Positions 24,001-36,000 of a stretch of DNA of 64,000 nt are shown piece by piece. The position numbers were made by a program. Source of the DNA: Phormidesmis sp. (lineage in GTDB: Bacteria; Cyanobacteriota; Cyanobacteriia; Leptolyngbyales; Leptolyngbyaceae); NCBI GenBank assembly GCA_965248535.1, contig CBDFJR010000002.1, positions 1,344,001 through 1,408,000 of the forward strand, in the 5' to 3' direction. Every line of letters starts with the position of its first letter. The first letter of the stretch is position 1.

Positions 24001-27000
24001 GATCCAGCCACTGCCAGTTAAACGCCCAAACGCCAACTAAACCTGCCAAAACGCTGATCGTTACCCAGACATCACTCATCGTGTGCTGGGCATCGGCAAT
24101 CAAAATCGGACTGCCCACTCGCTGCCCTTCGGCGCGCTCGTAGTAGGTGACAAAAATATTGATCCCCAACACGATCAGCAATAGCCACAGTTCCCCGGCC
24201 GAGATGTGAATCGGCTTACCCGTGCCCATCAACCGCTCGATCGCGCCCTGCAAAATCTCAAAACACGCAATCCCCAAAAAGGCAGCGATGCCTAAAGCAC
24301 TCACAGCTTCAAACTTTTGGTGCCCATAGGGATGATCGCGATCGGGCATCGGAGACGAAAATCGGCTGGCAATCAATCCCAGAATGTTGCTAGCGCTGTC
24401 GGTTAAACTATGCAGCGCATCTGCTAACAAACTTAATGAACCCGTTGTCAATCCCACAAAGGCCTTGAGTCCCAAGACAAACAGATTGAGCAATAGGGTG
24501 ATGATTAACACTTTGCGAACCGTCGATCGATTATCTACTATCACAATCTCTCATTACCCTTTAGCGCTCTGAATTATTCAGTGTAGATCTCGAAGATTAA
24601 AAGCGCTCTAAAGTCTTATTCGTTAAAGCTTTGAGCTTTCTATAACTGTTTTAAGTTCTTGACGACAATCGCAATTAGCAAGTCATACCAAATTGAAAAT
24701 AGACTGCAACAGGTGATCAATAAAACCTACTCAAAGTCCCCCATTTTGGGGGATTTAGGGGGCGAGGAACGGTCGCATTCACAAATTGACCTGGTATTAC
24801 AGAACCCGATAAACCTTACGTCTTGACTCAAGACTTGAGAGATTCTTTTTGTAGATCTTTGTCATCTAGAAAGTTAACTTTTTTGCTTGGGCTTCAATTC
24901 TCAATCCTGCTTCCCAGTAGGATGAAAGGGCTGCCACCGGGGACGAATCGTGTCTATGTCTTCTCAACTCACGTTAAACCTAATCGAAGGCTCTATTTCT
25001 TTCCGCTTTAGTCCAGAAGCCGCCAGAGACTTAAAAGCGACGCTGGCAGACCTGATGGAGCGGCTCAAAGTCACCGCCAATAAGCCAACCCCTGGAGGCA
25101 GAGTTACGCCCCAAAAGCCTGTGGAATATCGCCATACAGGAGACGTTTTTTTAGAGGTGTTTTGCAACCCCAATATTTGGCCCACACCCTTTGCAGCCAA
25201 GGTGCTGATCACCCTGAGAGACGATCGCATTCGCATCACGACCGAAGCCGAACTCAGCCGCGTCAATGACGATATCAGCGCTTATTTAGAACAAGCTTAG
25301 AGAACAAGTCTAGCTCGTAAGCCTTAGCTGAGAAATGTTACAGACCGCACTGTGAGCGGTGCAGTAAAATCGAGGCAACCACTCTCCTATTTATCGCTTT
25401 AAGCCATGACTTCTGATACCGTCCTTCGGCTATTGCAGAAAGGGTTTCGCGTCACGATCGGGGCAACAGCAACGCTGATCGAAGTGCTGCAAGACCCTCA
25501 AAGACGCGAGCAAAATTTATCAAAATTAAGGCTAGAGCTAGATCAGCTAGCGCAAGAATGGGCTGAAAAAGGGGAAACCACCGAGCAAGAAGCCCGCAGT
25601 TTTGTAGACACCTTCGTGGCCCAACATCGCGCCACCAGCGATCGGGCTGCCTCTGAAACCACCGTGACGACGATCGCAACGTCAGTGCCCTCCTCCACAG
25701 AGGTGCTCGAACTGCAAGAACTCACTGCACAACTCGCCGCCATTCGAGCCGAGCTAGCGCAGCTACGATCCCAAAAGCAGCCCTAAAGACCGGAGATTCG
25801 CGTAAGGGCACGGCACTGCCGTGCCCCCTAGACTCGACCAGTCACCGATCGTTTTAATAACTCTAAAGATACTATTCACGACTCAGTTAAAAGGAGTGTG
25901 CTGTGGATCTAGCGACCACCTTAAAAAGTCAAACCCCTCGCAATCATGTGCGAGAAATCGGCATCAACGGCAACCATTGGTATGCGATCGCTTGGTCTGC
26001 TGATCTCAAACCGACAAAAATTCTGACCGCGACCATTTGGCAGCAGTCAATCGCCTTTTATCGCGATCGCCACAACCAGATTCAAGCCGTCGAAAATGTT
26101 TGTCCCCACAAAGGCGTTTCGTTTGATCAGGGCAAAGTTGCAGAGAATGCGATCGTGTGCCCCTATCACGGCTGGGAGTTTAACGGGCAGGGCGAATGCG
26201 TCAATATTCCCTACTTTCCGCCCGATCAAAAGCTGCCTTGTGTCAAGATGCAGAGCTTCCCCGTGCAGGAAAAATATGGATTAATTTGGGTCTTTCCGGG
26301 TGAGCCTGCCCTGGCAGCCACGCAGCCCCTAATCGACATTGCAGAATACGACGACCCCCACTGGCTGCTGATTCCCATTGAGGCAGACTTTAAAGCCCAC
26401 TTCTCAATCTGCAATGAAAACACGATGGATGTGTTTCACGGTCATCTTCACAAAAAGCTACAAGGCTGGTTTGATCCCGTGCTGCTCAAGCTTCGAGAAA
26501 CTGAAACCTCGGTCGAAGCTAGCTATCAACTCTCTTACACAGGCTTTGTGACTCAACTGTTGGGGCTGAGTCAATCAGCCAATCGAGTCACCACCAAAGT
26601 CATTTCGGTGAGCTATCGCTATCCTCACTACATCAACTATCTTCCAGGGCTTTCATCGCTCTATTTGATGCGGTTGCCCATCGCACCTCAAAAAAGCCGA
26701 TCGTTCTCGCTTTTGTTTCTTAAGTTAGGATTGCCTCCGTGGTTGCTCAACATCCTGCGTCCCGTTTTGCAGCCTCTCATTCTAAATCTGCTGCTGCTGC
26801 CCTTTCTCAGACAAGATATTGAAATGATCGAGAGCGAACAGGAGAATTATGCAAAAAATCCTCAGCGGCGCTATGTCGAGGTTAACCCCGCGATCGTCGC
26901 CGTGCAGCGCCTGATATTACGTCAATATGAGCAGTTTATCCGCTATTCGCCCCACCCTGAAAGCCCGTTAGACTCGCCCGTTCCGCAGGAAGCATCGACC

Positions 27001-33000: not shown

Positions 33001-36000
33001 TCTATAAAAAATCGGAACTTTTTCAATGAAAGCATTAGTAACCGGGGCTAACGGCTTTACTGGGTCTCATTTAGTCAAAGCGCTTGAAAAGCGAGGCGAT
33101 GCTGTGGTGGGGTTGGTGAGACGATCCAGCGACTTATCGCGATTAGACAACACCGCGATTGAACTAGTCTATGGAGACATCACCGATCGCGCTGCCCTGC
33201 AACAAGCCATGAGTCAAGTTGATACCGTTTTTCACACAGCCGCCTACGTCGAACTCGGTTTAGTCGATGCCGCACGAATGGAACAGGTCAACGTTCAAGG
33301 AACGCGCACCGTGCTGGAAGTTGCCCAAGCTGCGGGAGTTTCTAAAATGATTTATTGCAGCACGATCGGGGTTTTTGGCGACACCCAAGGCAAAGTCATT
33401 GACGAAACCTTCGAGCGGATTCAAAAAGATTTTTCGTCTGCCTACGATCGCACCAAATACAACGCCCAACAACTCGTCAATCAAGCGGCGGCTAGCGGGT
33501 TTCCGGTCATAAGCGTGATGCCTTCCGGCATTTTTGGACTGGATGATCCACATTTTATGCCCGTCCTCAATACCTTTCTTAAAAGACGGCTAAAAGTTTG
33601 GGCAGGCGGACAAAGAATCACAGGCATCGTTCATGTCGATGATTTAGCAAAAGCGATGATATTGGCAGCCGATCGGGGTCAACCTGGCGAACATTACATT
33701 ATCTCGTCAGGCGATTTATCAACTCGTGAAATGTTTGAGATTTTTAGTCGAGAAACCGGAATCTCTGCCCCGGCTGACGCGCCCGAACCACTAGTTCGCA
33801 CCGTTGGCGCAGTCTTAGATCTCATTGGCCGCACCTTTTCGTGGCAGCCTCCGATCGACCGAGAACGAGTGCATTATCTCTACGATCGCTGCGTCCGCGT
33901 CGATGCTGCCAAGGCAAAACGAGAACTTGGATGGAACCCTCGCTCTATTGAAGCCACCCTCAAAGAACTAGTCCAACAGCCTTGAGATAAAAGAATCCTA
34001 TAAAAAAGGCTCCGCGGTCGCGGAGCCTTTTTTGTCGATTTCAGAAGAAGCTTCGATTAGAAGGTGAAGGTCGTTCTCACCGTGCCAATCACAACATCAT
34101 CGTTTGTGGTATTCTGACCGGGGTTAATCACCCAGATGATGCCAGGCGTGATTGAGATGTTGTCATTCAACTGATACTTATAGAACCCTTCTAGGTGAAG
34201 AGGAATCGCGTTGCCCACACCCGCTGCTCTTTGAGCAGCAGACGGATTAGACACATAAGGCTCTGCCCCTGCCATAAAGCCCAAGAGGTTACCTTTCTTG
34301 CCAAAATCAGGGAAGGCTAGACCAGCGCCATAAGTCCAGATTTTGCGAGAACCGTTGCCATCATCAACAAAATCAGCGTTGATGTAAGACGCAAAGCCAT
34401 TCAACACGATCTGGGGGCTGAGTCTAAAAGCGACTTCTGCTCCATAAGCGTTGACCTTAGCTGGGGTAATTGCGCCGAGTACGCTCGTGCCTTGGTTAGC
34501 CAGCAACGTGCCCGAAGCGCCAGTGCCGCCGTTTCCAGTGTCAAAGATCGCCGATCGTCTATAGGCATTGACGTAGGTCAAGCCAAGACTTAGAGCATTA
34601 CTAGCTTTGAAGGTCACTTGAGCCAGCGCAGAATAACTGCCGTTAAACAACCCATTTTTATCAGCAGGACTGTTTGCACTAGCGACCACTGCACCCGCAG
34701 AGGTTGAGTTGTCAGCCAAATAGCCACCGCTAATCGTAAAGGCTGGGGTCAATTCAAAGTTCACGCCTGCACCACTGCCACCACCAATCAAATAGATGGG
34801 GTTGCGTTGAGCAAAAACCGACAGAGGGCCTGTGCCGCCGTCAAACGCATCTAGAGCAGGGCTGACTGTGGGCGCATAGTCATAGTGAAGACCGCCTACA
34901 GCCGGGACGTAGACTCTCACCTTGTCAGTGATGTTAAAGAAATAGGCGACCCAATCAGCAAAAATTTTGTTGCCAACCGTGTTTCCAAAGTTAAAGGTCT
35001 GAAGCCCTTCAGCGTTTACGCCACCCGGTCGGTTGGGATTGTTTAGGTTGAAAGCGCCTGCATTACCTGCGGCAAGACGAGTAACCAACAAATCTTTGCC
35101 TGTAAAGCTGGTGTTGAGCGCCAGACGAACCCTGTCTTGAAACACCGTGTTGTTGCCACCAGAGTTTCTAACGCCAAACTCATCAGTGACTGCAAAAATA
35201 ACCTCGCCTGCAAGCTTGGTTGTGGTTGAAAACTGCTGCTTTTCAAGGGTTGCCGTCCGAGCTTCTAGAGCATCAACACGACCACGCAGGGTTGCCAACT
35301 CAGCCGCAAACTCTTCTTGCAGCTTTTGCAGGGTTGCCAAGTCTTCTTTCTTTACCAAATCGGCTGTGGCAGCCGCGATTAGCTCATTGACGCGATCGAG
35401 ACAAGCGTTCAAACCAGCCGCAAACTCATAGCGACTTAAAGCGCGGTTGCCGCGATAGGTTTTGTCGGGGTAGCCCGCGATGCAGCCATAGCGCTCAACC
35501 AAAGACTGCAAGGCTTGGAATGCCCAGTCAGTCGGCCGCACGTCAGACAGTTGAGAAACCGATGTGACTTGCCCGATCGCTGCCCCACCTTTTCCTTCCC
35601 GGCTGTAGCGATTGATTTGGTCGATTGAGTTGAGATCAGCACTCTGGTCTGCCGGAGAAGACACTTGAGCAACTTGAACCGGGGCAATCTTAGAAAGCTT
35701 TAGCTCGGTAGATTTTTCAGAAATCTCTTTGGCTTGAGTGGTCTTCGAGGTGGCAACTTCAGCAACCTGAGCCGCTTTGACTTCAACAGACGGTGCGACA
35801 AGCGCCTCAATTGCTTGAGTTTTCGCTGCGATCGCGACCGGAGATGTCGGAACAACGACTGACTTTTCTGCGGCGATCGCCCCAGAAGAAACCGCTAGAG
35901 CTACCCCAAAAAGCGCTGGGCTGACCACTAACGAATTCAACAGAAATTTAAACATGAATATTCTCCTCACACCTGGTTTATAGAGCGACTGTTTGAGCCT

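Follow-up and report, generated by a model that had tools for sequence, protein, structure and literature searches.

Ceramide synthesis in Caulobacter crescentus and Escherichia coli BL21(DE3) proceeds through Spt, bCerS (CC_1154/YghO), CerR (CC_1164/'epi'), AcpR and AasR. The sulfonolipid/capnine route of the Bacteroidota begins with cysteate-C-fatty acyltransferase, an alpha-oxoamine synthase (AOS) that joins a non-glycine amino acid to a fatty acyl thioester, and continues with a reductase. YghO is listed as the counterpart of CC_1154 in the Fig. 9 legend of PMC9386255; its neighbours are given in an excerpt of the same paper as an Spt whose activity has been shown by experiment, together with an ACP, an acyl-AMP ligase and a reductase of the epimerase family.

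A cluster of kindred design occupies positions 25903 to 33985 of the window, the 64,000-nucleotide stretch of a Phormidesmis sp. genome analysed here, with all of its ORFs on the + strand and where the survey's finding had placed them; families were assigned with Pfam and NCBIfam. Like the Caulobacter and E. coli system, it links an AOS to a YghO-family N-acyltransferase, the latter a clear homologue, and to an epimerase-family SDR. Unlike that system, it is associated with no dedicated ACP or acyl-ACP synthetase of the Caulobacter/E. coli type (none in the genome at E <= 1e-8), while a Rieske oxygenase, a short FA_hydroxylase, an Mpo1-like protein, an Amidohydro_2 enzyme and a DevCA-like exporter are extras absent from the system described. 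How much of the ceramide pathway, then, is here?

Orthologues of the AOS, the acyltransferase and the SDR are found in an identical set of 27 genomes among 400 others of the phylum (at 70-83%, 58-81% and 59-76% identity, respectively) and, at such levels of identity, in 0 of the remaining 373, and this supports the view that synthase, acyltransferase and reductase constitute a real functional unit. The three-gene co-occurrence extends to 6 genomes whose fetched locus is without the AOS. All 27 are Cyanobacteriia, and roughly one in ten of the cyanobacteria sampled carries the module; weaker bCerS-like homologues, at 26-38% identity, occur in 16 genomes of other classes among the 400, and both counts reproduce those of the survey. 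Rieske orthologues (53-66% identity) accompany the module in 20 of the 27. Physical linkage is stronger than had been stated when the triad was reported as syntenic in other cyanobacteria: of the 27 Cyanobacteriia loci, 21 contain the AOS, 16 the SDR and 14 the Rieske gene, the last next to the AOS, the corresponding figures for 80 named loci, many of them cut by contig ends, being 52, 52 and 43.

The acyltransferase (31813-32997, +, 394 aa; a probable start at 31831 gives 388 aa) is, judged by its sequence, a solid member of the YghO/bCerS family, as the survey had proposed. It aligns end to end with E. coli BL21(DE3) YghO (28% identity over 376 aa, E 1e-51), its best 150 50%-cluster representatives all match YghO too, and the cyanobacterial sequences branch together as the sister group of canonical bCerS. 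In the AF2 model (pLDDT 91.9) the protein folds as a tandem GNAT, like amine N-acyltransferases, with TM 0.58-0.60 to 2wpw/7q3a/MshD. The gene is single-copy in the genome. Among 80 metagenomic loci with members of the family, an AOS stands alongside in 45 and an SDR in 37; natural AOS-acyltransferase fusion proteins also exist (P0175, P0202, P0225). The enzyme would be expected to add an amide-linked acyl chain; YghO-family enzymes could also acylate amines of other kinds.

The PLP-dependent AOS (28901-30178, +; Pfam Aminotran_1_2) is a more equivocal case. It keeps the catalytic His, the DEAH (Asp-x-x-His) motif, the TFSK PLP-lysine and the C-terminal Arg, and it probably joins a long-chain acyl thioester to an amino acid. 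Its best PDB sequence matches are, as previously reported, the serine palmitoyltransferases 3a2b/8guh (2.1e-39), followed by the BioF/KBL enzymes 7poa/8s1y (2.3e-33). The pairing of an AOS with a reductase also recalls the sulfonolipid/capnine route; the match to 28eh, 'Cysteate-C-fatty acyltransferase' (4.5e-24), is weaker than that to SPT or BioF/KBL. A distinct true BioF elsewhere in the genome, already recorded by the survey, is confirmed at 459 bits, above the bioF cut-off of 426; on that model the cluster AOS reaches about 231. The identification of the AOS as Spt, made at the same time, is not supported: the three Spt models give it 176, 160 and 119 bits (cut-offs 640, 500 and 670), the bioF model gives more (232), and in the tree it forms a separate cyanobacterial clade of its own, with a stem of 3.27 substitutions per site, apart from the canonical Spt clade (98% SH-aLRT).

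Might this nevertheless be the canonical Caulobacter-type Spt-bCerS-CerR route in diverged form, its AOS a true serine palmitoyltransferase, its SDR a true CerR and its product a serine-derived dihydroceramide? The ranking of PDB matches speaks for it, as does the sister position of the acyltransferase to canonical bCerS, and AU tests do not reject an AOS constrained to group with canonical Spt; of the two constraints applied, this one had the higher likelihood (+16.05 lnL relative to the free quick tree, p-AU 0.82). PMC8895605 names two cyanobacteria, Scytonema and Moorea, as reported sources of ceramide-type lipids. However, the constraint with BioF/Kbl/HemA is not rejected either (+9.39 lnL, p-AU 0.74); apart from the long stem and the poor Spt scores, the AOS has three insertions, a changed PPxxP loop and remodelled substrate loops; an E. 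coli Spt query ranks the genome's BioF (162 bits) above the cluster AOS (108 bits); and the reciprocal-best-hit test against the E. coli pathway fails for AOS and SDR alike. The SDR, moreover, is excluded from the CerR clade. We regard the diverged canonical route as unlikely; serine is a possible precursor for the AOS.

The SDR (33026-33985, +) is of the extended, NAD(P)-dependent 3beta-HSD/epimerase type (Pfam Epimerase 4.4e-43, 3Beta_HSD 3.3e-35; PDB match 3wj7, 2e-40) and has the motifs TGANGFTG and Y140xxxK. Its gene starts 28 bp after the acyltransferase gene, and coordinates abut in many of the named loci. Its equation with CerR in the survey's finding is not supported: likeness to the E. 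coli counterpart amounts to 23% over 211 aa (E 2e-10), and the tree sets it outside the CerR clade (95% support for that clade), grouping it with housekeeping paralogues. Nor does its sequence show an N-terminal hydrophobic segment; the CerR of Caulobacter, by contrast, reportedly resides in the periplasm (PMC11087976). The nearest NCBIfam models, HpnA (208 bits), SdmB (146) and OleD (118), represent lipid 3-keto/3-hydroxy enzymes, all with scores below cut-off (367 for HpnA, 600 for SdmB); the SDR is presumably the ketoreductase of the module.

The Rieske [2Fe-2S] non-haem-iron oxygenase (25903-27006, +; Pfam Rieske 7.7e-24) keeps the CxH...CxxH and E..D..H..H motifs, has SxtT/SxtDIOX and DdmC as its best PDB matches, and ends in a C-terminal hydrophobic segment (residues 281-302). 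The SdmA- and SdmB-type likeness that had been remarked on in the Rieske protein and the SDR is borne out by full-length NCBIfam matches of 227 and 146 bits, and a Rieske gene linked to a 3beta-HSD-type SDR does recall the sterol C-4 demethylase pair of the Methylococcus type. These two enzymes might be imagined to demethylate a polycyclic triterpenoid (a hopanoid or sterol), with the AOS and GNAT genes as unrelated neighbours: SdmA is the best match of the one and SdmB the second best of the other, for which HpnA is the top model. But 227, 146 and 208 bits fall far short of the cut-offs of 600, 600 (both equivalog) and 367, the SDR gene directly follows the acyltransferase gene, and the SDR strictly tracks AOS and acyltransferase (27/27), whereas 7 of the 27 genomes do without the Rieske gene, which is thus dispensable. 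The co-occurrence data already disfavour this demethylase pair, which is very improbable; the Rieske oxygenase is better seen as a likely accessory tailoring enzyme of the module.

Not everything within the cluster is conserved with it. Between the Rieske gene and the AOS lie two ORFs that match no family in Pfam or NCBIfam: a 181-aa lipoprotein-like ORF (27136-27681, +), whose translation has a signal peptide and an LLLTGC lipobox, which only 4 of the 80 named loci share, each of them of Phormidesmis type, and which is a lineage-specific insert, probably outside the pathway; and a 295-aa conserved hypothetical ORF (27716-28603, +), also a lineage-specific insert, present in 5 of the 80 and with Atlas matches to cyanobacterial hypothetical clusters only. 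The class I SAM methyltransferase (30641-31609, +, probable start 30722; Pfam Methyltransf_11) is located in the cluster, as had been noted, and yet is no conserved member of it, occurring at the module in 0 of 27 Cyanobacteriia loci and 0 of 80 named loci. It sits in a 1.63-kb insertion (30246-31875, +) that is peculiar to the present genome and separates the AOS gene from that of the acyltransferase: blastn against four Phormidesmis loci finds both flanks collinear and this segment without counterpart, and GC drops to 0.438 at 30000-30999 from about 0.50 nearby. Of 5 module-positive genomes, 1 has an orthologue, which lies some 860 kb away from the module; of 5 module-negative genomes, 1 has a homologue at 49%. 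The methyltransferase might modify the lipid product or act on something else.

Other candidate partners are encoded at a second locus elsewhere in the genome that co-occurs with the module. There an Mpo1-like gene and a DevA/DevC-like exporter adjoin genes for the short FA_hydroxylase, orthologues of which (at least 62% identity) occur in 26 of 27 module-positive and 0 of 50 module-negative genomes, and for an amidohydrolase (Amidohydro_2; 20 of 27 versus 0 of 50). The ABC pair resembles the DevBCA heterocyst-glycolipid exporter and would fit lipid export, although both scores are below cut-off (DevA-like 248 bits against 296, DevC-like 190 against 290) and no DevB-like membrane fusion gene was noted beside the pair. 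FA_desaturase and LpxO-like genes are further accessory genes of lipid type. In other cyanobacteria the module has as neighbours an MFS transporter (41 of 107 loci) and a GH3 amide synthetase (21); LysR regulators, several hydroxylases and a B12-radical-SAM methylase are also seen.

Such neighbours would also be in keeping with a product that is secreted as a specialised metabolite or signal and is not a bulk membrane lipid. It could be an acylated amino-ketone or amino-alcohol akin to what CqsA-type enzymes make, or else a lipoamino compound. Around the AOS the Atlas places a mixture of CqsA-, BioF-, ALAS- and KBL-type clusters, those of alpha-hydroxyketone autoinducer synthases among them, and the distribution of the module is patchy across the phylum. 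Yet elsewhere members of the acyltransferase family keep company with Spt and CerR, the accessory genes, including the glycolipid-type exporter, have a lipid character, and the Rieske protein has its membrane segment. Within the families that carry it, the module is near-universal (f1 and f2, 3/3 each; f13, 4/4; f4, 5/6), which looks like a structural trait. A secreted product is, we think, rather improbable.

Literature searches, which did not take in the supplements of the 2022 and 2024 surveys, found no published description of the cyanobacterial module. With the AOS outside the Spt clade and the SDR outside the CerR clade, the route is the same in enzyme classes, the acyltransferase alone being a demonstrable family member. 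What stands of the survey's Spt-bCerS-CerR ceramide route is the functional unit, the bCerS family and the ceramide-type reading; Spt, CerR and a conserved methyltransferase are not supported. Gene content, homology and strict co-inheritance are observed directly, as is the acyltransferase fold; from these we infer substrates, product and the chemistry and order of every step. The most parsimonious reading, and a supported one, is a ceramide-type product: the module probably makes an N-acylated long-chain 2-amino-3-hydroxy (ceramide- or sphingolipid-like) lipid. A link to known lipids comes from Scytonema sp. NUACC26, which carries the acyltransferase, the SDR and the AOS, a Scytonema species being among the two cyanobacteria for which PMC8895605 gives reports of such lipids. 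The AOS would join an amino acid, possibly serine, to a long-chain acyl thioester, probably acyl-ACP, to form an alpha-amino ketone; the tandem-GNAT enzyme would N-acylate the amine and the 3beta-HSD-type SDR reduce the 3-keto group. The membrane-anchored Rieske oxygenase may then hydroxylate or desaturate the lipid, the FA_hydroxylase, Mpo1-like protein and Amidohydro_2 enzyme encoded elsewhere may tailor it further, and the DevCA-like ABC exporter would carry it outward.

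Seven open reading frames, all on the plus strand, occupy the window between 25.9 and 34.0 kb. Five could be assigned to families by Pfam and NCBIfam: a Rieske oxygenase (25903-27006), a PLP-dependent alpha-oxoamine synthase (AOS; 28901-30178), a class I SAM methyltransferase (30641-31609), a GNAT-like protein, referred to below as the acyltransferase (31813-32997), and an extended SDR (33026-33985). The remaining two, a lipoprotein-like ORF of 181 aa with the lipobox LLLTGC (27136-27681) and a well conserved hypothetical protein of 295 aa (27716-28603), lie between the Rieske and AOS genes. 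The genes flanking this cluster (guaA, psbD and those for a CDF zinc exporter and an OprB/SLH porin; Pfam, NCBIfam) mark the organism as a cyanobacterium, and Phormidesmis priestleyi genomes are its nearest named relatives, with acyltransferases 86-91% identical to that of the window. Scans for promoters (7 found, 8.1 in shuffles) and terminators (5 versus 10.9) detected no excess. None of the 4 runs listed as containing the stretch is an RNA run.

The AOS, the acyltransferase and the SDR form one unit that is real, conserved and strictly co-inherited. In a phylum-wide sample of 400 further genomes, 27 encode acyltransferase orthologues (58-81% identity); exactly those 27 also encode AOS orthologues (70-83%) and SDR orthologues (59-76%), and the other 373 have no match to any of the three at those levels of identity. 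The survey's finding of 27 cyanobacterial genomes, and 16 others, with homologues of the Caulobacter ceramide synthase bCerS was reproduced. A Rieske orthologue (53-66%) is present in 20 of the 27 carriers; a paralogue of lower identity (33-40%) is widespread. In the 27 loci fetched from these carriers the AOS gene is found 21 times, the SDR gene 16 times and the Rieske gene 14 times. Scanning species representatives yielded 323 stretches encoding relatives, and the 80 named loci of this kind, many of which end at contig edges, contain the AOS gene in 52 cases, the SDR gene in 52 and the Rieske gene in 43. Rieske-AOS and acyltransferase-SDR are the common sub-units. In each of five Nostocales genomes without an AOS gene in the locus (Scytonema sp. 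NUACC26 is one of these), that gene is located elsewhere or just past the fetched stretch. In two loci, IS605 OrfB/TnpB-type (Cas12f-like) genes lie between the MFS transporter and Rieske genes (L021 13559-14746 and L028 13598-14710).

Three of the seven ORFs do not belong to the module. The lipoprotein-like and 295-aa ORFs are confined to Phormidesmis-type loci and were rejected as members for that reason. The methyltransferase was likewise rejected: it is encoded in none of the 27 fetched loci and none of the 80 named loci, and it is not co-distributed with the module: one of five module-positive genomes has an orthologue, at a distance from the module, and one of five module-negative genomes has a homologue at 49% identity. 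Its gene lies within an inserted 1.63-kb segment between the AOS and acyltransferase genes (30246-31875; GC about 0.44 versus about 0.50 nearby) that is missing from four collinear Phormidesmis loci, where a spacer of 170-310 bp is found in its place. The slot directly upstream of the acyltransferase gene, filled by the SAM methyltransferase in the window, is occupied in seven other loci (L071 6314-7900, L077, L098, L108, L116, L123 and L137) by a B12-binding radical-SAM protein with DUF4070 and weak similarity to PhpK/HpnR-type methylases; in L071 and L098 this B12-radical-SAM methylase lies between AOS and acyltransferase. Because this slot accommodates a methylase elsewhere, methylation is possible as a lineage-specific decoration of the product.

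How closely do the three core enzymes correspond to those of the Caulobacter ceramide route, Spt, bCerS and CerR (in E. coli BL21(DE3): Spt, YghO and the SDR "epi")? The survey had proposed an operon of that type, and the answer differs from one enzyme to the next. The acyltransferase is a member of the bCerS/YghO family by full-length homology and by its genomic link to an AOS and a reductase. It aligns end-to-end with E. coli BL21(DE3) YghO (28% identity over 376 of 380 aa, E 1e-51), and all 150 of its nearest representatives at 50% identity match YghO. The neighbors of yghO are spt and the genes for an ACP, an epimerase-family SDR and a fatty acyl-AMP ligase; PMC9386255 shows E. coli BL21 Spt to be active and gives YghO and its SDR as the counterparts of Caulobacter CC_1154 and CC_1164. 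The representatives include AOS-acyltransferase and acyltransferase-AMP-ligase fusions, and one protein of 784 aa (P0122) with two acyltransferase domains in tandem; three metagenome loci (L158, L170 and L198) each carry a tandem pair of bCerS-family genes on a single contig. The cyanobacterial acyltransferases form, in a 105-row tree, a clade (100%) that is sister to, rather than nested within, a 78-row clade (98%) holding YghO and every Spt-adjacent member. Homologues from the non-photosynthetic classes of the phylum branch further out. Five of these (L045, L051, L049, L046 and L053, on G109:C14, G112:C116, G124:C33, G043:C10 and G055:C26, respectively) are encoded in open frames 579-1247 aa long and, on account of that length, are probably fusion proteins; out to about 9 kb from them, neither AOS nor SDR was detected. 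The AlphaFold model of the acyltransferase (pLDDT 91.9) is a tandem GNAT whose closest folds are 2wpw, 7q3a and MshD (TM 0.53-0.60, at most 16% identity); no solved structure similar to it in sequence was found.

The affinity of the AOS is less easily read. Its catalytic motifs align with those of the references (LNHGC, DEAH at 233, TFSK at 271-274, RIRIT): the catalytic His, the Asp-x-x-His, the PLP-Lys and the C-terminal Arg, all of them kept, define the AOS superfamily and not Spt specifically. It is set apart by three insertions (about 11, 12 and 7 residues) and by three replacements: G-S/T-R gives way to S-T/C-S, the GG(F/Y) that follows the PLP lysine to GAA, and the PPxxP loop to a shortened loop, SPIWFIAKP. 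The comparisons neither bear out nor overturn the claim that this enzyme is closest to serine palmitoyltransferases. The PDB hits reported for it were obtained again, phmmer ranking SPT first (138.9 bits versus 119), and the genome does have a separate BioF, as stated; the NCBIfam Spt models, on the other hand, score far below their cut-offs (NF047600, NF047599 and NF047603: 176, 160 and 119 bits versus 640, 500 and 670), and the highest-scoring model is bioF (232 bits, itself below its cut-off of 426). Searched against the window's genome, E. coli Spt finds the housekeeping BioF at 162 bits and the cluster AOS at 108 bits. All 45 AOS genes adjacent to metagenomic bCerS-family genes (80 loci) resemble E. 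coli Spt more closely than they do the cyanobacterial AOS. (A technical note: the metagenome scan for bCerS-family genes was run with a 10-row alignment.) In an AOS tree of 66 rows, the backbone of which is unresolved, a canonical Spt clade (46 rows, 98% SH-aLRT), made up of AOS genes neighboring bCerS/CerR and including the experimentally active E. coli BL21 Spt, leaves out the cyanobacterial AOS clade (100%), whose stem is 3.27 substitutions per site long. AU tests reject neither of two placements: relative to the free quick tree, holding the AOS with the Spt clade changed the likelihood by +16.05 lnL (p 0.82), and holding it with BioF/Kbl/HemA by +9.39 lnL (p 0.74). The cyanobacterial AOS is therefore a distinct subfamily compatible with either placement; an Atlas look-up returned no neighbor that discriminates, and the amino-acid substrate is not readable from the sequence. 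An AOS-family gene on the conjugative Bacteroides ovatus plasmid NZ_CP081919.1 (L218 3923-5158), with a TetR regulator beside it and a MAC/perforin-domain gene close by, ranks among the top plasmid-borne matches to the cyanobacterial AOS, at 30% identity.

The SDR is a candidate lipid-type ketoreductase and, by the same kind of comparison, not a CerR orthologue. It carries the cofactor and catalytic signatures of extended SDRs (TGANGFTG at residues 6-13; Y140-x3-K), and its top PDB match is a "putative oxidoreductase" (3wj7, 2e-40). It resembles E. coli epi, the CerR counterpart, weakly (23% over 211 aa, E 2e-10). In a tree of 51 rows the CerR-type clade (36 rows, 95%, including E. coli BL21 epi) leaves it out, and it groups with paralogues from its own genome and with three metagenomic SDRs; of 37 SDRs whose genes adjoin metagenomic bCerS genes, 30 lie closer to E. 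coli epi and 7 closer to the cyanobacterial SDR. Caulobacter CerR is reported to be periplasmic (PMC11087976); in its sequence the window SDR shows no N-terminal hydrophobic segment, the Rossmann motif starting at residue 6. NCBIfam models place it below cut-off throughout (HpnA 208, SdmB 146 and OleD 118 bits). That the Rieske oxygenase and the SDR are instead an SdmA/SdmB sterol demethylase pair was considered and rejected, their scores of 227 and 146 bits comparing with cut-offs of 600 and 600.

The wider neighborhood was surveyed by clustering ORFs from 107 cyanobacterial loci (some genomes are in both locus sets: at least L016/L113, L017/L081, L022/L069 and L024/L094). An MFS transporter is found in 41 of these loci, a GH3 amide synthetase, weakly OlsH-like, in 21, an ABC ATPase in 20, a short FA_hydroxylase in 16, a MacB/DevC-like permease in 12, an Mpo1-like protein (PF06127) in 10, Amidohydro_2 in 9, Cupin_8 in 6, FA_desaturase in 4 and an LpxO-like hydroxylase in 2. 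Genes that adjoin the module in other cyanobacteria form, in the window's genome, a second locus on another contig (G000:C5:31386-36198; L223 4386-9198), with five genes on the minus strand: FA_hydroxylase (165 aa), Mpo1-like (105 aa), Amidohydro_2 (467 aa), a DevC-like permease and a DevA-like ATPase. NCBIfam has no model for the first three of these proteins. Orthologues of the FA_hydroxylase (62-82%) occur in 26 of 27 module-positive and none of 50 module-negative genomes (4 of the 50 have homologues at 48-55%), and those of the Amidohydro_2 protein (74-90%) in 20 of 27 and none of 50. As the co-distributed genes belong to lipid-tailoring and lipid-export families, they support a lipid product. 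Close to this second locus lies a bacteriorhodopsin-like gene (L223 688-1410; Pfam Bac_rhodopsin, 1e-45), beside a Cache/GAF histidine kinase.

What might these proteins make? A ceramide-like lipid is the probable product. The AOS would form a long-chain alpha-amino ketone, which the tandem-GNAT enzyme would N-acylate; the SDR would reduce the ketone, the Rieske and FA_hydroxylase-type enzymes would hydroxylate or desaturate the product, and the DevCA-like pump would export it. Placing acylation before reduction borrows, by analogy, the order of the Caulobacter model as set out in PMC11087976. The acyl donor is probably acyl-ACP. Cyanobacteria activate fatty acids by way of an acyl-ACP synthetase (PMC9386255, citing Kaczmarzyk and Fulda). 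The window's genome yielded no dedicated homologue of AcpR or AasR. The system would work like the Spt-bCerS-CerR route, but only its acyltransferase is demonstrably a member of the corresponding family.

A more far-reaching proposal can be offered tentatively, and we rate it at a little short of an even chance. 1) The module, with its associated genes, would be an independently assembled cyanobacterial route to sphingolipid-like lipids that combines a bCerS-family acyltransferase, a previously unrecognized AOS clade, a non-CerR reductase, a dedicated hydroxylase/Mpo1-like/amidohydrolase set and a DevCA-like exporter. 2) The long-chain base may not be derived from serine, so that the product could be a lipid class new for the phylum. 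3) The product could serve as a new biomarker for cyanobacteria that form mats and crusts. 4) Published surveys would have overlooked the route because they start from similarity to Spt. Such surveys pick Spt homologues at BLASTP E <= 1e-70 (PMC11334938 and PMC12619533); the AOS matches Spt at 4e-38, far from that threshold, with the E. coli Spt as query rather than the surveys' own queries.

Ceramide-type lipids were reported years ago from Scytonema and Moorea; PMC8895605, in which this is recounted, says that cyanobacterial sphingolipids have no reported genetic basis and that the one candidate tested, a BioF-like enzyme of Nostoc punctiforme, was negative. A literature search found no published description of the present module; the tables of the 2022 and 2024 surveys, which lay outside that search, may list cyanobacterial bCerS. 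The module supplies concrete candidate genes for these lipids. Its genes are absent from most Nostocaceae-type genomes sampled and present in a Scytonema genome. Since there are carriers in culture (Phormidesmis priestleyi, Stenomitos frigidus ULC18, Nostoc minutum NIES-26 and Leptothermofonsia ETS-13), the question is directly testable. That two of the three enzymes are not orthologues of the Caulobacter ones bears on how often ceramide-like pathways have arisen by assembly and suggests that surveys starting from Spt undercount producers; if the base proves to be unusual, a lipid class would be added to a globally important phylum of phototrophs.
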